Shown: one piece after another, positions 11,329-19,570 of the stretch
Layout of the letters: each line of letters begins with the position of its first letter
How positions within the stretch are numbered: the first letter of the stretch is position 1
NCBI GenBank assembly: GCA_048939995.1
Contig: JBHLOY010000007.1
Span: forward strand, 64,001-128,000
From: Promethearchaeota archaeon
Lineage (GTDB): Archaea > Asgardarchaeota > Lokiarchaeia > Sigyniarchaeales > SOKP01
DNA: 64,000 nucleotides
Direction of reading: 5' to 3'
Made by a program: the position numbers and the translations under genes
Notes under the pieces: generated by a model
Databases searched by the model: none
Told to the model about the DNA's origin: nothing
The model's input: only the letters and a program-made list of their open reading frames with translations

Positions 11329-12708
11329 GTGAGAGAATTGGGAGAGAATGAAGAACCTTTAACACCGGAAGAAATTGAAAAACAAAAGAAGATCGTTGAT
11401 GAACTTTATAAGAAGGAAAAAGAAGAGAGGGAAGAATATCTTAAAAAATTTGAGAAACAGAGAAAAGACGCATTTGAGGAAAGTAAAAGGTTGATTACCA
11501 ATATAATTTCAGAAAAAAGCTTTATAAGAGAAAAACAACGCGAACAGGACCAGAAGAGAAAAGAGCTTAAACCAGATATAAAAAGTAAGGGAGAAGCAAT
11601 AAGTAAATCTGTCGATCAAAAGGTGTTTATGATAGAAAAGAAGAGAGAAAGTGATACTCAGAGGTTAAAGATTAAACCAGATTTAGAAAAAACTACCGAA
11701 GCGATAAGTAAATCAATTGATGAAAAAGCTTTTTTAATTGAAAGAAAGAAAGAGATTGACGCTCAACGGCTTAGTGTAAAACCTGATAAACAAAAAATAG
11801 AACAAGCTATAGAGAAATCTATAGGAGAAAAGGCATTTTTACGAGAAAAACAACGAGAGGAAGATGCTAAAAGAATGGAACTAAAGCCAGATTTTAGAAG
11901 AGTAGGAGAATCAATTGAAAGAAGTGTAGGTGAAAAAGCTTTCCGAATTGATTTGCAACGAGGAGCAGAGCAAAAAATAAAAGCTTTAAAACCAGATATA
12001 AAAAGTAAGGGAGAAGCTATAAGTCAATCTGTTAGTGAGAAGGCATTTAGATTAGAGAAGCAAAGAGAAACTGTGGAAGAATTAAAAAGTATCAAACCAG
12101 ATCTAGAACAAGCGAAGCAAGCCATAGAAAAGTCAATTAGCGAAAAAGCTTTTATGCAGGAAAAACAACGCGAGGAAGATACTAAACGAATGGAATTAAA
12201 GCCAGACTTCAGAAAAGTAGGAGAATCAATTGAAAGAAGTGTAGGTGAAAAAGCTTTCAGAATTGATTTGCAACGAGGAGCAGAGCAAAAAATAAAAGCT
12301 TTAAAACCAGATATGGAGAAAGTGGGAGAAGCTATAAGCCAATCTGTTAGTGAGAAGGCATTTAGATTAGAGAAGCAAAGAGAAACTGTGGAAGAATTAA
12401 AAAGTATCAAACCAGATCTAGAACAAGCGAAACAAGCCATAGAAAAATCAATTAGCGAAAAAGCTTTTATGCAGGAAAAACAACGTGAGGAAGATACAAA
12501 ACGAATGCAACTAAAACCTGATTTACAAAAAGCAGGAGAGGCTATAGAAAGAAGTATTAGCGAAAAGGCTTTTAGGAGAGAAAAGCAAAGAGAAAACGAT
12601 CTAAAGCGAAAGGAATTAAAACCAGATATCAAAGGAATAAGCGAAAAAATCGAAGACAAAATAGAAAAAATCGAGGAGAAAAAGAAAAAGGAATCACCAT
12701 CTGATTAA
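11329..12708 (+). CDS. Tandem 35-aa repeat protein (nebulin-like period and motif)
   Basis: 459 aa: a 60-aa charged N-terminus followed by 11 contiguous 35-aa units with consensus SEKAFxxEKQRExxxKxxxLKPDxxKxGEAIxxSI. Confidence 0.85.
   Translation: MRELGENEEPLTPEEIEKQKKIVDELYKKEKEEREEYLKKFEKQRKDAFEESKRLITNIISEKSFIREKQREQDQKRKELKPDIKSKGEAISKSVDQKVFMIEKKRESDTQRLKIKPDLEKTTEAISKSIDEKAFLIERKKEIDAQRLSVKPDKQKIEQAIEKSIGEKAFLREKQREEDAKRMELKPDFRRVGESIERSVGEKAFRIDLQRGAEQKIKALKPDIKSKGEAISQSVSEKAFRLEKQRETVEELKSIKPDLEQAKQAIEKSISEKAFMQEKQREEDTKRMELKPDFRKVGESIERSVGEKAFRIDLQRGAEQKIKALKPDMEKVGEAISQSVSEKAFRLEKQRETVEELKSIKPDLEQAKQAIEKSISEKAFMQEKQREEDTKRMQLKPDLQKAGEAIERSISEKAFRREKQRENDLKRKELKPDIKGISEKIEDKIEKIEEKKKKESPSD
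11509..12663 (+). repeat. Coding tandem repeat, 11 x 105 bp, with a 315-bp higher-order repeat
   Basis: Unit 1 starts at Ser61 (TCA at 11509). GTAGGAGAATCAATTGAAAGAAGTGTAGGTGAAAAAGC occurs at 11902 and 12217, 315 bp apart. Confidence 0.95.
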
Positions 12709-12713
12709 AAAGT

Positions 12714-13202
12714 TTATATTTCAAAGTTAGAATTGTAATAATTCAGCATTTCTAGCTTCTTTTCATAATTTAAAATTGAGGGTTCAATTATACCATTAAA
12801 CTGATTAATTGAATTTTCATAGCGATTGTAAAAATCATTTATAATGTAATGTAACAAGTGCCTTTCAAACTTTAAATTTAATTTTTTAGTAATTGCTATT
12901 ACCGACAAGCGGCCTAACCTTTCATATAAAATACGTGTTTCTCTAAAGTTAATCTCTTGAATTTCTTCATCTGTATCTCCCGGTTTTATTTCCTTTATAA
13001 ATAAGTTAAGAGCATTTAAAAATCCGCTAATTAAATCTCCATTTGAAGTATTATTTCTATTTTGAGAATACTGTTTACTTATAAGTAAAGATCCTGTGAG
13101 ATTATCTAAAAAATAAATTGCATGAAAAAAGCAATCACTTTGGTTCACTCTTTTAAATCCAAAACTCTTATTATTAACAATTTTATTAAAATTAAACGAC
13201 AT
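12714..13202 (-). CDS. Longin-like domain protein (Asgard type)
   Basis: IYFLD..TGSLLISKQY, DLISGFLNALNLFIKEI, IQEINF..TRILYE and FYNRYENSINQFNG. Confidence 0.65.
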   Translation of the reverse strand: MSFNFNKIVNNKSFGFKRVNQSDCFFHAIYFLDNLTGSLLISKQYSQNRNNTSNGDLISGFLNALNLFIKEIKPGDTDEEIQEINFRETRILYERLGRLSVIAITKKLNLKFERHLLHYIINDFYNRYENSINQFNGIIEPSILNYEKKLEMLNYYNSNFEI

Positions 13203-13927: not shown

Positions 13928-14299
13928 TTATTCTTGAATTTTTATTGACTCAAGAGAACGCCAAGCCTTCCAAAAGATTAACCATAATATTGCAAAGATA
14001 AAAATAGTTGTAACACATGTATAGCCACCAATAAATAAATCTATTAATATCATGAAAGGGATTCCCGCAATAGAAAATCCAAAAAGATAACCATATCCCC
14101 AATACCTATTTTTCAAAGCAATTAAAACTCCAGGAATAATAGTAGTAAAAATTATTGATAAGTATGCTATTACCTCAATGAAATTTGGACTCTCCAAAAT
14201 TAATAACATATTAAGCCATGAAACTATAAAACCGATAATTGAAAATATAACTGTGAGAAAATCTAATTTAAATTGGGATTTAGGCGCTTTCTTCATCAT
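13928..14299 (-). CDS. Small membrane protein (4 TM)
   Basis: 123 aa with four hydrophobic segments. Confidence 0.7.
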   Translation of the reverse strand: MMKKAPKSQFKLDFLTVIFSIIGFIVSWLNMLLILESPNFIEVIAYLSIIFTTIIPGVLIALKNRYWGYGYLFGFSIAGIPFMILIDLFIGGYTCVTTIFIFAILWLIFWKAWRSLESIKIQE

Positions 14300-14435: not shown

Positions 14436-14481
14436 ATAAGATAAAAATTTAATTTTCAAATCAATAAGATAAAAATTTAAT
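14436..14481. repeat. 18-bp direct repeat ATAAGATAAAAATTTAAT, two copies
   Basis: Exact copies at 14436-14453 and 14464-14481. Confidence 0.7.
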
Positions 14482-14539
14482 AAGCATCGAAAATTTAAAA
14501 CAAAATCAAAATAGGTTAATAAAAAAGATATAAAGTCAT

Positions 14540-14666
14540 GGCTCCTGCTACCACCCTGGATTTTTGTCTTTTGGTAGTGTGTGAAAGCACACTCTGATTT
14601 CGCCCTCCTCCCCCTATTTTGTTTTTGACCTTGCTTTTAGGTCTTGGTGGCAGGAGTCTCCTTTTT
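14540..14666 (+). ncRNA. Candidate structured small RNA of unknown family
   Basis: 14-bp terminal stem 14540-14553/14645-14658 with 2 G.U pairs; hairpin AGTGTGT-GAAA-GCACACT at 14576-14593; hairpin GACCT..AGGTC at 14627-14643; 3' T-run; locally GC-rich. Confidence 0.6.
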
Positions 14667-14715
14667 ATAAAGTGAGCTTGTTTTAATTAACAATAAAAAG
14701 AAAAAAAATAATGAT

Positions 14716-15471
14716 TTAATTTAATTTTAATAATTTCTTCATCCATTTCGGTAATATAAACCCTATATAATAAAAAGTGCTTGATAATAACATAAAAACC
14801 CTAAAAAATATCAGGGTAAAGGGGTTAAGTTCTAAGAATCCATCTCCAATAGCACCTATTGCAAAAAGATTAAATGATAGAATAAGAAATCGCCCTTTCC
14901 ATTTAATTTCCCTCTCTTCACTTTTTAATGAGTGGATAGAAAAATCATTACCAGTAACTGTACTTATTAATAGTGAGAAAGCTAAGAAAATCAAAGCAAA
15001 TCCCCTGTATTCAATATCGATGGCACTCTGCTTTATTCCGATTAGCGGATCAACAGGAGCTCCTGGAGCAAAAAATAAAAAGAAGAAAAGGTACGCATAA
15101 TATATTATTGATAGGATTGCCGTGCTTATTAGTAAGGGATATTTGAGTTTGGGATGTAATGCGGGGATATAAATCTGAAACCACGCAAATAAAGCAATTG
15201 GTACTCCTAATGTTCCTAATAAAACATAAATCGGATAAGGTATAACTTCATTGGTAATCAACCAAGAAATATAACCAAATCCACTAGGGTACCAAGGAGA
15301 CATCGTAAAGATTATTGCAAAGAAAAAATAGTAGAGAGTTTTGTATTTTAATTGATATGCTTTAATTAAGACTAATATTCCATAAAAAAATGTGATAAAG
15401 AGACTGATCATTCCAAAAATTCCGGAAAGCTGGCTTAAAAAGTCTAATTCTATAAATAGTAGAAAAATCAT
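14716..15471 (-). CDS. Polytopic (~7 TM) membrane protein
   Basis: About seven hydrophobic segments; ends YIGFILPKWMKKLL. Confidence 0.75.
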   Translation of the reverse strand: MIFLLFIELDFLSQLSGIFGMISLFITFFYGILVLIKAYQLKYKTLYYFFFAIIFTMSPWYPSGFGYISWLITNEVIPYPIYVLLGTLGVPIALFAWFQIYIPALHPKLKYPLLISTAILSIIYYAYLFFFLFFAPGAPVDPLIGIKQSAIDIEYRGFALIFLAFSLLISTVTGNDFSIHSLKSEEREIKWKGRFLILSFNLFAIGAIGDGFLELNPFTLIFFRVFMLLSSTFYYIGFILPKWMKKLLKLN

Positions 15472-15666: not shown

Positions 15667-17376
15667 TTGATTAATATGACAGAAGAAATTATAAGACGCA
15701 CTACAAGTATCTGTCCAGAATGCCTACAACCTATTCCAGCTGAAATTTACGTTGATGATGATAAAAACTGGGTAATGATGAGAAAAAATTGTAAAGAACA
15801 TGGTGATTTCAAAGATAAACTCAGTATAGATCCAGAAGATTATAAATGGCAACAAACATTTACAGATGAAATTGGCTCCACAGTAGATAATAGTACCAAA
15901 CCCGAATATGTATCTTCGGGAATAAAAGAGTGCAATCAAGGCTGCCCTTATGACTGTGGACTTTGTGATAACCACAAAAGTGCTCCTAATATCTGTTTGA
16001 TTGACATCACCAATAAATGTAATTTAGCATGTCCAATCTGTTTTGCTAATGCGAGTGCAAAGGGATACGTTGTCCAACCATCATATGATGATATTGTACG
16101 CATCATGGAACACTTTCGATCTATGAAACCCACCCCAGCAGTTTTGCTTCAAATTTCTGGTGGTGAACCGACAGTTAGAGATGACTTACCTGATATTATT
16201 CGCAAGGGTAAAGAATTAGGTTTTATTGAAGTAATGGTTACCACTAATGGAGTTAGATTTGCTAAATCAATTGAATTTATGAAAGAATGTAAAGATGCTG
16301 GAATGGATGCTATCTACTTACAATTCGATGCAACTGACAACCCTGAAGTATGGAAAAAAATAAGGGGAGTAAACCTTTGGCCTTTAAAACAAAGAGTTAT
16401 TGAGAATGCCCGCAAACTTGGATTTTATGGTGTAATGCTTGTCCCTGTAATCGCTAAAGGAGTTAATGATAAAGAAGTTGGCAAGATTATGGATTATGCC
16501 AGAGATAATACTGATGTGATTTCAGGAATAATTTATCAACCTGTATCTCTATGTGGTCGTATCAGCTTTGAAGATTTAATGGATTTGCGATATACAACCT
16601 CAGATTTGAAAATAGCATTAAATGAACACACAAATAACTCAATTACTAAATTTTACCCATTAGCTACCACTGCCAAGATGACTCGATTATTAGCTTGGTT
16701 CGATGATGCTCCCGAATGGAGTCCAACCAGTCACTCAGATTGTGGTTTTGCCACAATTGTTGTCGTAAATAAAAAAGGCGAATATGAATCTATTGAAAAT
16801 TACTTTGACGCAGAAGGACTCATCAGTTGGTCAAACAAAGTTTATGACATGGCAATGAAACAGGAAATTCCAAAACCTACCGGACTCCTTAAAGGTATAG
16901 ATTTGGAACAATTTGGCACAGTTGCAACCACAGTAGGCAAGTTTATCGATGATATGACCAACCTAGGCTATCGACAAATTATGAAGGCCTACTATTTTGC
17001 AGGGGCAATGAGATACGTACGTAATCCTGCAAAAATTATGGATAGTAAAACTTTATTAGCATTTTCTCGCCTTATAGCATTTCCCAACTTACAATCTGCC
17101 GGACTTTTCTTCCACGAGAAGAATTTGTTAATATCCTCGATGCATTTCCAAGATTCTTACAATTTTGATTTAGATAGAGTATGTAGATGCCTTGTTCATT
17201 ACGGAGTAGTCGATCCGGAAGACTCCACCAAAATTTTGGAGGTACCTTTCTGTGCTATGAATACATTGCATAGAGAGAGATTAGAACGTGCTTTAGCAAT
17301 ACAAGGCGAGGAAGCGAAAAAACCTGAAGTCATCCAGTCTGAGATCGAAGAACTTTTGGAGACTGTGAAAGATTAA
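15667..17376 (+). CDS. tes: Tetraether lipid synthase (Tes/GDGT-MAS) family radical SAM enzyme
   Basis: N-terminal SICPEC...CKEHG, CPYDCGLC..H, CNLACPICFANA, HSDCG, RCLVHY and PFCAMN. Confidence 0.88.
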   Translation: MINMTEEIIRRTTSICPECLQPIPAEIYVDDDKNWVMMRKNCKEHGDFKDKLSIDPEDYKWQQTFTDEIGSTVDNSTKPEYVSSGIKECNQGCPYDCGLCDNHKSAPNICLIDITNKCNLACPICFANASAKGYVVQPSYDDIVRIMEHFRSMKPTPAVLLQISGGEPTVRDDLPDIIRKGKELGFIEVMVTTNGVRFAKSIEFMKECKDAGMDAIYLQFDATDNPEVWKKIRGVNLWPLKQRVIENARKLGFYGVMLVPVIAKGVNDKEVGKIMDYARDNTDVISGIIYQPVSLCGRISFEDLMDLRYTTSDLKIALNEHTNNSITKFYPLATTAKMTRLLAWFDDAPEWSPTSHSDCGFATIVVVNKKGEYESIENYFDAEGLISWSNKVYDMAMKQEIPKPTGLLKGIDLEQFGTVATTVGKFIDDMTNLGYRQIMKAYYFAGAMRYVRNPAKIMDSKTLLAFSRLIAFPNLQSAGLFFHEKNLLISSMHFQDSYNFDLDRVCRCLVHYGVVDPEDSTKILEVPFCAMNTLHRERLERALAIQGEEAKKPEVIQSEIEELLETVKD

Positions 17377-19021: not shown

Positions 19022-19570
19022 ATGACCACCGAAGAACGAGAGTTTGTATTTAAAATTACAATATTAGGAGATGCAGCGGTCGGAAAGACATCTCTAATAA
19101 ATCAATTCGTTGAAGGATCTTTTCAAGAGGATTATAAACCAACTTTAGGAGCAAATATTGTCCGTAAAGATGTGGATCTAAGTGAAATAAATGCTCAAAT
19201 CCGATTAATCATGTGGGATCTTGCAGGCCAGGAAAAGTATAATGTTATTCGTTCAATGTACTTTCAAGGATGTGTTGGGGCCTTAGTTGTATATGATATT
19301 ACACGTTATCAGACATTTGAGAATGTAGAGTCAAAATGGCTTAAGGATTTCAAGAAATATGTAAAAAAGGAGGGCGCTTACGTACTAATAGGTAATAAGA
19401 TTGACTTAGATGTTCAAAGAGCCGTGTCTAAAGAAAATGGAAAAGAATTAGCAGAAAAAATACAAGCTAGTGATTTTATTGAAACAAGTGCTAAATATGG
19501 GGAGAATGTAGAGAAAGCATTTAAGAACTTGGTTTTTCAAATCTTAAGAAATTACGGAGAGAAAGTTTGA
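19022..19570 (+). CDS. Rab-like small GTPase
   Basis: G1 GDAAVGKTS, G2 PTLG, G3 WDLAGQE, G4 NKID, G5 ETSAK; no C-terminal Cys. Confidence 0.95.
   Translation: MTTEEREFVFKITILGDAAVGKTSLINQFVEGSFQEDYKPTLGANIVRKDVDLSEINAQIRLIMWDLAGQEKYNVIRSMYFQGCVGALVVYDITRYQTFENVESKWLKDFKKYVKKEGAYVLIGNKIDLDVQRAVSKENGKELAEKIQASDFIETSAKYGENVEKAFKNLVFQILRNYGEKV

Follow-up and report, generated by a model that had tools for sequence, protein, structure and literature searches.

The RNA element at its locus

The 64,000-nt window analysed here, part of the genome of a Lokiarchaeia archaeon (GCA_048939995.1, contig JBHLOY010000007.1), carries a folded RNA element on its + strand. This source genome served as the reference, and positions are those of the window. 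The element forms a GC-rich island (14540-14667, 47% GC) between flanks of 15-16% GC. Structurally, the RNA consists of a closing helix P1 (14 bp, two G.U pairs), a single-stranded U-rich core, a hairpin P2 that is capped by GAAA in the window copy and contains one G.U pair, a pyrimidine-rich linker, a third helix P3, and a 3' tail with a T-run at 14662-14666 following P1 (Table 1). A preliminary description made from the letters of the window had reported the island, the 14-bp stem, the two inner hairpins and the three G.U pairs, and all of them are in place. The + strand of the window copy folds with z-scores of -3.9 to -5.4, with none of 200 shuffles equally stable, compared to -2.2 for the - strand. 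The source genome holds a single copy of the element, which scores 141 bits with our covariance model R1.

Table 1 Features of the RNA element, its upstream segments and the adjoining genes.
Feature	Position	Strand	Remarks
Folded RNA body, P1 to pyrimidine/U tail	14540..14667	+	fold z -5.4; model R1 141 bits; covariation
P1, 5' strand	14540..14553	+	pairs change on both sides
P1, 3' strand	14645..14658	+	
Single-stranded U-rich core	14555..14574	+	invariant; Sm-site-like; two U4-5 tracts flanking GUC
P2 hairpin	14576..14593	+	helix conserved, loop free
UGAUUU(CGCCC) motif, directly 3' of P2	14595..14605	+	weaker conserved; present in both families
Pyrimidine-rich linker: anti-Shine-Dalgarno-like tract, then leader-complementary segment	14603..14626	+	variable; often hairpin in relatives
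P3 hairpin, 5 bp and 7-nt loop	14627..14643	+	absent from some genera
3' pyrimidine/U tail	14659..14667	+	putative terminator
Anti-linker segment, complementary to linker 14613-14626	14502..14515	+	
Anti-core motif, wobble complement of core	14465..14480	+	pairs with core in predicted nascent fold
Second copy of anti-core motif	14437..14452	+	candidate promoter
123-aa membrane-protein gene, divergent	13928..14299	-	neighbour in 44/155 copies
251-aa membrane-protein gene, convergent, between RNA and radical SAM gene	14716..15471	-	5 copies only
Radical SAM gene, usual 3' neighbour of syntenic copy	15667..17376	+	PF04055 and PF23545; 40 copies

The element recurs in two Lokiarchaeia families, the window's own and a sister family. 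In a plain MAFFT alignment, 22 of the 24 pairs change on both sides, a score reached by none of 500 shuffles, and sliding the pairs by 1-3 columns lowers the pairing from 85% to 37-55%. A two-family alignment has 96% of its cells paired, a value biased upward by the fitting of this alignment to the model. The alignments show compensatory changes that maintain all three helices (P1, P2 and P3), and together with the folding scores this bears out the earlier reading as a structured non-coding RNA. The unfitted alignment has 62 G.U pairs against 22 A.C pairs. In 122 copies of a non-redundant set of 155, to which the copy counts below refer unless another total is given, the + strand fold is the more stable one. 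Both observations indicate that the RNA is read from the + strand, as had been proposed.

The core is identical in 75 of 88 copies that were gathered by BLAST without selection on it. Its segment A-U4-5-GUC-U4-5-GG is the only fixed part of the RNA and is common to both families, and the core U positions show no U-to-C change (alignment A3). The UGAUUU motif 3' of P2 is less strictly kept. Stem sequences are replaced between genera, the sequence of P1 is free, and P3 is missing from some genera; the linker contains an anti-Shine-Dalgarno-like CCUCC in 92 copies and is replaced by hairpins in the sister family. Two emphases of the preliminary description are thereby revised. The GNRA hairpin is present in the window copy, but a GNRA loop caps P2 in only 12 of the 155 copies, and its importance is not supported. 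Of two proposed Sm-like sites, the first U-tract lies within the invariant segment, whereas the second, AUUUUG, occurs in only 40 copies.

A T4 run stands just 3' of the element in 106 copies, compared to 61 in a control window, and the 3' pyrimidine/U tail is probably a terminator. On inspection, the start codon and frame of short open reading frames (ORFs) vary among the copies, with no conserved leader peptide or toxin ORF, and no K-turn, SECIS, C/D or hammerhead motif is kept among them. A tRNA-like 3' end (NCC after the stem) was rejected, as P3 has no T-loop. We regard the RNA as very probably functional and almost certainly non-coding.

Distribution and genomic context

With BLAST, full-length homologs are found in nearly all genomes of the window's genus, often several per genome. 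Model R1 detects the element in 123 of 131 genomes of the window's family, each with 1-18 dispersed intergenic copies, and an iterated covariance model recovers a divergent form in 10 of 14 sister-family genomes (E below 1e-5). The sister family includes two cultured organisms, Promethearchaeum syntrophicum MK-D1 (PMC11316595) with four full copies and 'Ca. Lokiarchaeum ossiferum' B35 (PMC9834061) with three. In MK-D1 the cores lie at 1,734,448 (+), 1,882,170 (+), 2,676,600 (-) and 4,255,129 (-), and in B35 at about 2,498,170 (-), 2,878,270 (-) and 3,151,965 (-). The Asgard-wide BLAST and covariance-model survey, which had been suggested as a check, yields both homologs and covariation. An exact search of GTDB with the 20-nt core gave matches almost only on Lokiarchaeia-type contigs. 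The other Asgard families covered by the searches did not yield the element, more divergent forms of which may have escaped there, and taxonomy-wide searches returned nothing in families beyond the two. Contigs titled Hermod-, Odin-, Thor- or Hodarchaeota were discounted, as these are submitter labels and some coincide with genomes of the window's own genus. The sole match outside Lokiarchaeia (G194) was discarded as a chance one, lying antisense within a 124-aa ORF.

In line with the earlier statement that no known family is matched, Rfam 15 gives no hit at gathering or E-value thresholds (best E 0.56 for the window copy, 17.6 bits versus 60). A literature search, with subscription journals mostly outside its coverage, found no description of this RNA family. 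The family is uncatalogued and, as found, confined to the two Lokiarchaeia families.

Some occurrences stand apart. A divergent copy with an intact core (E 3e-8) is found in a viral database (locus L210:36-146; IMGVR_UViG_3300029288_000001, 224,826 bp), where it adjoins small ORFs and an HNH endonuclease; this contig is possibly a Lokiarchaeia virus or mobile element. Other viral 17-mer matches come without the family fold. The exact 20-nt core also occurs without this fold at L136, L106 and L203; the L136 contig is phage-like, encodes a DNA methyltransferase and was assigned to a Saccharibacteria bin. One genome, with 18 copies, carries the RNA in tandem pairs about 290 bp apart (G132:C14:3367-3784 and 149081-149495).

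None of the 155 copies lies within an ORF, and their neighbours take all four orientations and fall into 236 clusters, which supports the claimed independence from the flanking genes. About 44 copies, the window's included, occupy an ancestral syntenic locus flanked by the gene for a small membrane protein on one side and that for a radical SAM protein on the other. The 123-aa membrane protein has no Pfam match; the radical SAM protein carries an N-terminal zinc ribbon. Among the neighbour clusters examined there is no recurring transposase, reverse transcriptase (RT) or Lsm gene, and no gene linked to the RNA was found among the neighbours of the 155 copies. Similarity between paralogs extends from about -200 to +100 and is then lost. 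As many paralogs share some 200 bp upstream together with the RNA and then diverge, the spreading unit is the promoter region plus the RNA, copied as DNA and without a partner gene. Downstream of the RNA, the paralogs L039, L043, L052, L056, L058 and L059 share a second short motif that ends in GTACGGACCGAA and is possibly part of a mobile cassette carrying the RNA.

Further from the element, the window encodes a 459-aa charged protein with long internal repeats (K-P-D ... E-K-A-F) and no credible Pfam family (11329-12708), a 162-aa protein that is longin/roadblock-like by eye (12714-13202), and a Rab-like small GTPase of the Ras family (19022-19570, E 8e-51). The latter two are typical Asgard signature genes.

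The invariant core and its candidate partners

An invariant core on replaceable stems, without U-to-C changes, is more readily explained by base-specific protein contact than by wobble pairing, and from its conservation the core is probably a protein-binding site. The Sm consensus is PuAU4-6GPu between stem-loops, and SmAPs bind U-rich RNA (PMC3710371); archaeal Sm-like proteins are poorly characterised (PMC9887622). The RNA presents a conserved, single-stranded A-U4-6-G between stem-loops. Four Lsm genes (PF01423) are present in the source genome, one of them at G000:C19:42750-42911; three of the encoded proteins are short and keep Sm1/Sm2-like residues, and the fourth is extended at its C-terminus. 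Within the order, 3-4 Lsm genes are present in most genomes. We postulate, with a probability of about 0.4, that the RNA is an independently transcribed small ribonucleoprotein (RNP) whose loop binds an Lsm/SmAP ring; the assignment of Lsm/SmAP as the partner of the core is itself tentative. Isolated, foldless cores follow the apparent end of the same ORF in two sister-family genomes, in MK-D1 (L407; 1,044,288, - strand) and at L411 (G048:C245). This is how a portable protein site might behave, and these cores are possible mRNA 3' sites for the same protein.

Segments upstream of the RNA are complementary to its single strands, so the transcript is probably longer at its 5' end than the ~125 nt given in the preliminary description. 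The anti-core motif stands upstream of 59 of the 155 copies, compared to 4 downstream, 3.4 in shuffled sequence and 5 of 560 ordinary upstream regions. At six of its A positions facing a core U, 23 of 24 single changes are A-to-G, which keeps pairing with U possible. The proximal leader (-50..-19) pairs with the core in 14 of 155 copies, not above composition; only the distal motif exceeds it. The anti-linker segment forms at least 10 contiguous pairs with the linker in 71 of 222 copies, against 7 when a downstream control is used, with covariation at one position (U-A 39, C-G 9, U.G 7). When the window transcript is folded at growing lengths, masking of the core gives way to masking of the linker and finally to the closed P1 form. 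These patterns suggest a longer precursor that masks its U-tracts during transcription.

For the proposed RNP, the following course is hypothesized. A precursor with an A-rich leader of 40-110 nt would be made from the + strand. The leader would pair with the emerging U-tracts, perhaps shielding them from aCPSF1 and its U-tract-dependent termination. As the 3' strand of P1 emerges, the RNA would refold to its closed form with the core exposed, and transcription would end at the 3' U tail. A ring that binds uridine, most probably one of the 3-4 Lsm/SmAP paralogs, would then load onto the core. The resulting RNP would serve as a dosage-tuned scaffold or sponge, which would account for the tolerance of extra copies and the drift of the remaining sequence.

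Several observations weigh against an Lsm/SmAP particle of this kind. The first U-tract has the A-U4-6-G form expected between helices, but the flanking purines of the full PuAU4-6GPu are missing: both families have U at the 3' position, and the sister family has U at the 5' position as well. For generic binding of SmAPs to oligo-U, neither GUC nor GG would have to be invariant. The distribution of Lsm genes does not follow that of the RNA, none was recognised beside a copy, and a U-rich 9-mer is not rare in the source genome. A leader-masking step is no more than probable, since the anti-core motif, found in about 40% of the copies, resembles a B recognition element (BRE)-TATA pair and is not discernible among sister-family copies, and since related copies are not independent. 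The motif may act as a BRE/TATA-like promoter element, either in place of the pairing or in addition to it. TTAATAAA, which had been pointed out about 24 nt upstream, is present (starting at 14516), but it is not visibly conserved, and a role as the promoter is not supported. The most elaborate version, a stable snRNP-like particle in which an Lsm ring, perhaps heteromeric, would load at an internal site specified by its sequence once a self-masking leader has released it, appears doubtful.

In the main rival, the termination factor aCPSF1, or another KH/U-tract reader, would have the core as its ligand or decoy, with the RNA titrating termination or being cut at this site. A minimal aCPSF1-binding element comprises two U4 tracts and spans at least 18 nt, and the Loki ortholog behaves in the same way (PMC8716108). 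The core has this form, from which both a reason for leader masking and the present rival arise; the aCPSF1 gene is present in the source genome, and stand-alone cores follow not only the ORF ends at L407 and L411 but also P1 in L267. However, aCPSF1 requires U-tracts but no invariant GUC between them, all archaea have this factor whereas the RNA was found in two families only, and cleavage would destroy the selected P1, so that we consider this explanation unlikely. The remaining rivals are weaker. A trans-acting 'sibling' small RNA (sRNA), whose C/U-rich linker pairs with Shine-Dalgarno sites while the core serves as chaperone site, would account for the frequent CCUCC tract, for several paralogs per genome and for Shine-Dalgarno-like motifs before 426 of 1988 genes (111 in a control window). 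Its anti-Shine-Dalgarno tract is variable, closed into hairpins among sister-family copies and complementary to the leader of the same RNA, and the source genome offers no conserved target complement of the core, nor any complement longer than 13 nt elsewhere; we hold this sRNA reading to be rather improbable.

Pairing could also be directed at 16S rRNA, for which the RNA would act as guide or chaperone: the core and the conserved h20/h24 junction region can form an 18-bp duplex with one bulged A and five G.U pairs. Its -24.5 kcal/mol is matched by 16 of 600, 7 of 584 and 2 of 200 shuffles (p about 0.01-0.03), and the target is nearly invariant in the 16S genes of the window's family. This level is marginal after several queries, the sister-family core pairs with its own 16S no better than shuffles do, and no U-to-C changes strengthen the wobble pairs, which makes a 16S guide improbable. 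A miniature inverted-repeat transposable element (MITE), or another DNA-level site with inverted repeats, would explain the 1-18 dispersed copies, the one on the IMG/VR contig, the several paralogs that on inspection lie among mobile-element-like genes, and the inverted pair that core and upstream motif form in DNA. Yet target-site duplications, which had been named as the mark of a MITE, flank 1 of 99 copies, no more than in the control; the terminal stem sequence is replaced between genera without conserved strand-neutral terminal inverted repeats, no transposase or RT neighbour recurs, a syntenic copy is kept across species, and there is a G.U bias, leaving little room for a mobile element. 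Least probable of all is a riboswitch or attenuator in the leader of the radical SAM gene. The syntenic copy lies upstream of this gene on the same strand in 40 copies, and two alternative folds exist, but in the window an antisense gene intervenes and about 1 kb separates the RNA from the radical SAM gene, 58 of 146 copies have their nearest downstream gene on the opposite strand, and the other neighbours are unrelated. The lack of target-site duplications and of recurring neighbours argues against both the MITE and the cis-acting switch. A telomerase- or DRT-type template RNA was also rejected, with no RVT_1 in the source genome and no tandem repeat of the core unit; as the genome has neither Piwi nor RT, an Argonaute-guide precursor or RT template is unsupported.

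Comparison with known RNAs

How eukaryotic Sm rings came to be seated on defined small nuclear RNA (snRNA) sites is the question on which this lineage-wide RNA, with its one invariant Sm-like loop, bears, and its presence in cultured MK-D1 and B35 makes the question directly testable. If the most elaborate version is true, a dedicated Sm-site RNA of Asgard archaea would give Sm-class snRNPs a precedent in archaea, though one found only in Lokiarchaeia and not in the Asgard lineages closest to eukaryotes. Were the partner aCPSF1, the RNA would be a regulator of archaeal termination; we know of no RNA regulator of this kind. With either partner, it constitutes an uncatalogued Asgard RNA family with strong covariation, suited to Rfam.

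Sm-class snRNAs (U1, U2, U4, U5, U7) share with it the single-stranded A-U4-6-G between helices, a length of 100-200 nt and several gene copies. In contrast to them, the present RNA does not keep the flanking purines, has a second U tract and stem-closed ends, and shows no other snRNA motif or Rfam match; archaea are without a spliceosome. Y and vault RNAs resemble it in their paired ends, pyrimidine-rich interior, U tail and length of about 100-130 nt, a likeness the preliminary description had drawn. The identity with Y RNA fails, as no Ro60/TROVE gene was found in the source genome (98% complete; controls gave matches); the RNA also has no conserved bulged-C Ro site, and its stem sequence is free. 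A search of the source genome for the major vault protein (MVP) gave no match, but no control matched either.

Archaeal SmAP/Lsm-bound sRNAs and Hfq-dependent siblings (Qrr, LhrC) are alike in being intergenic and multi-copy with their own promoter region, and in their U tail, U-rich site and C-rich tract; here, however, the putative seed varies, the U-rich loop is invariant and the fold is closed and multi-helical. The protein-sequestering RNAs CsrB/RsmZ and 6S likewise present a fixed single-stranded motif on replaceable stems and set dosage by copy number, whereas this RNA has one site in place of repeated GGA loops and no Rfam similarity. aCPSF1-dependent terminators (PMC8716108) also place two U4 tracts within about 18-20 nt, but here the tracts are internal, enclosed by a covarying stem and separated by an invariant spacer. 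There is no sufficient basis for assigning the RNA to the Sm-class snRNAs, Y RNAs or vault RNAs, and it most likely works like a protein-bound small RNA.
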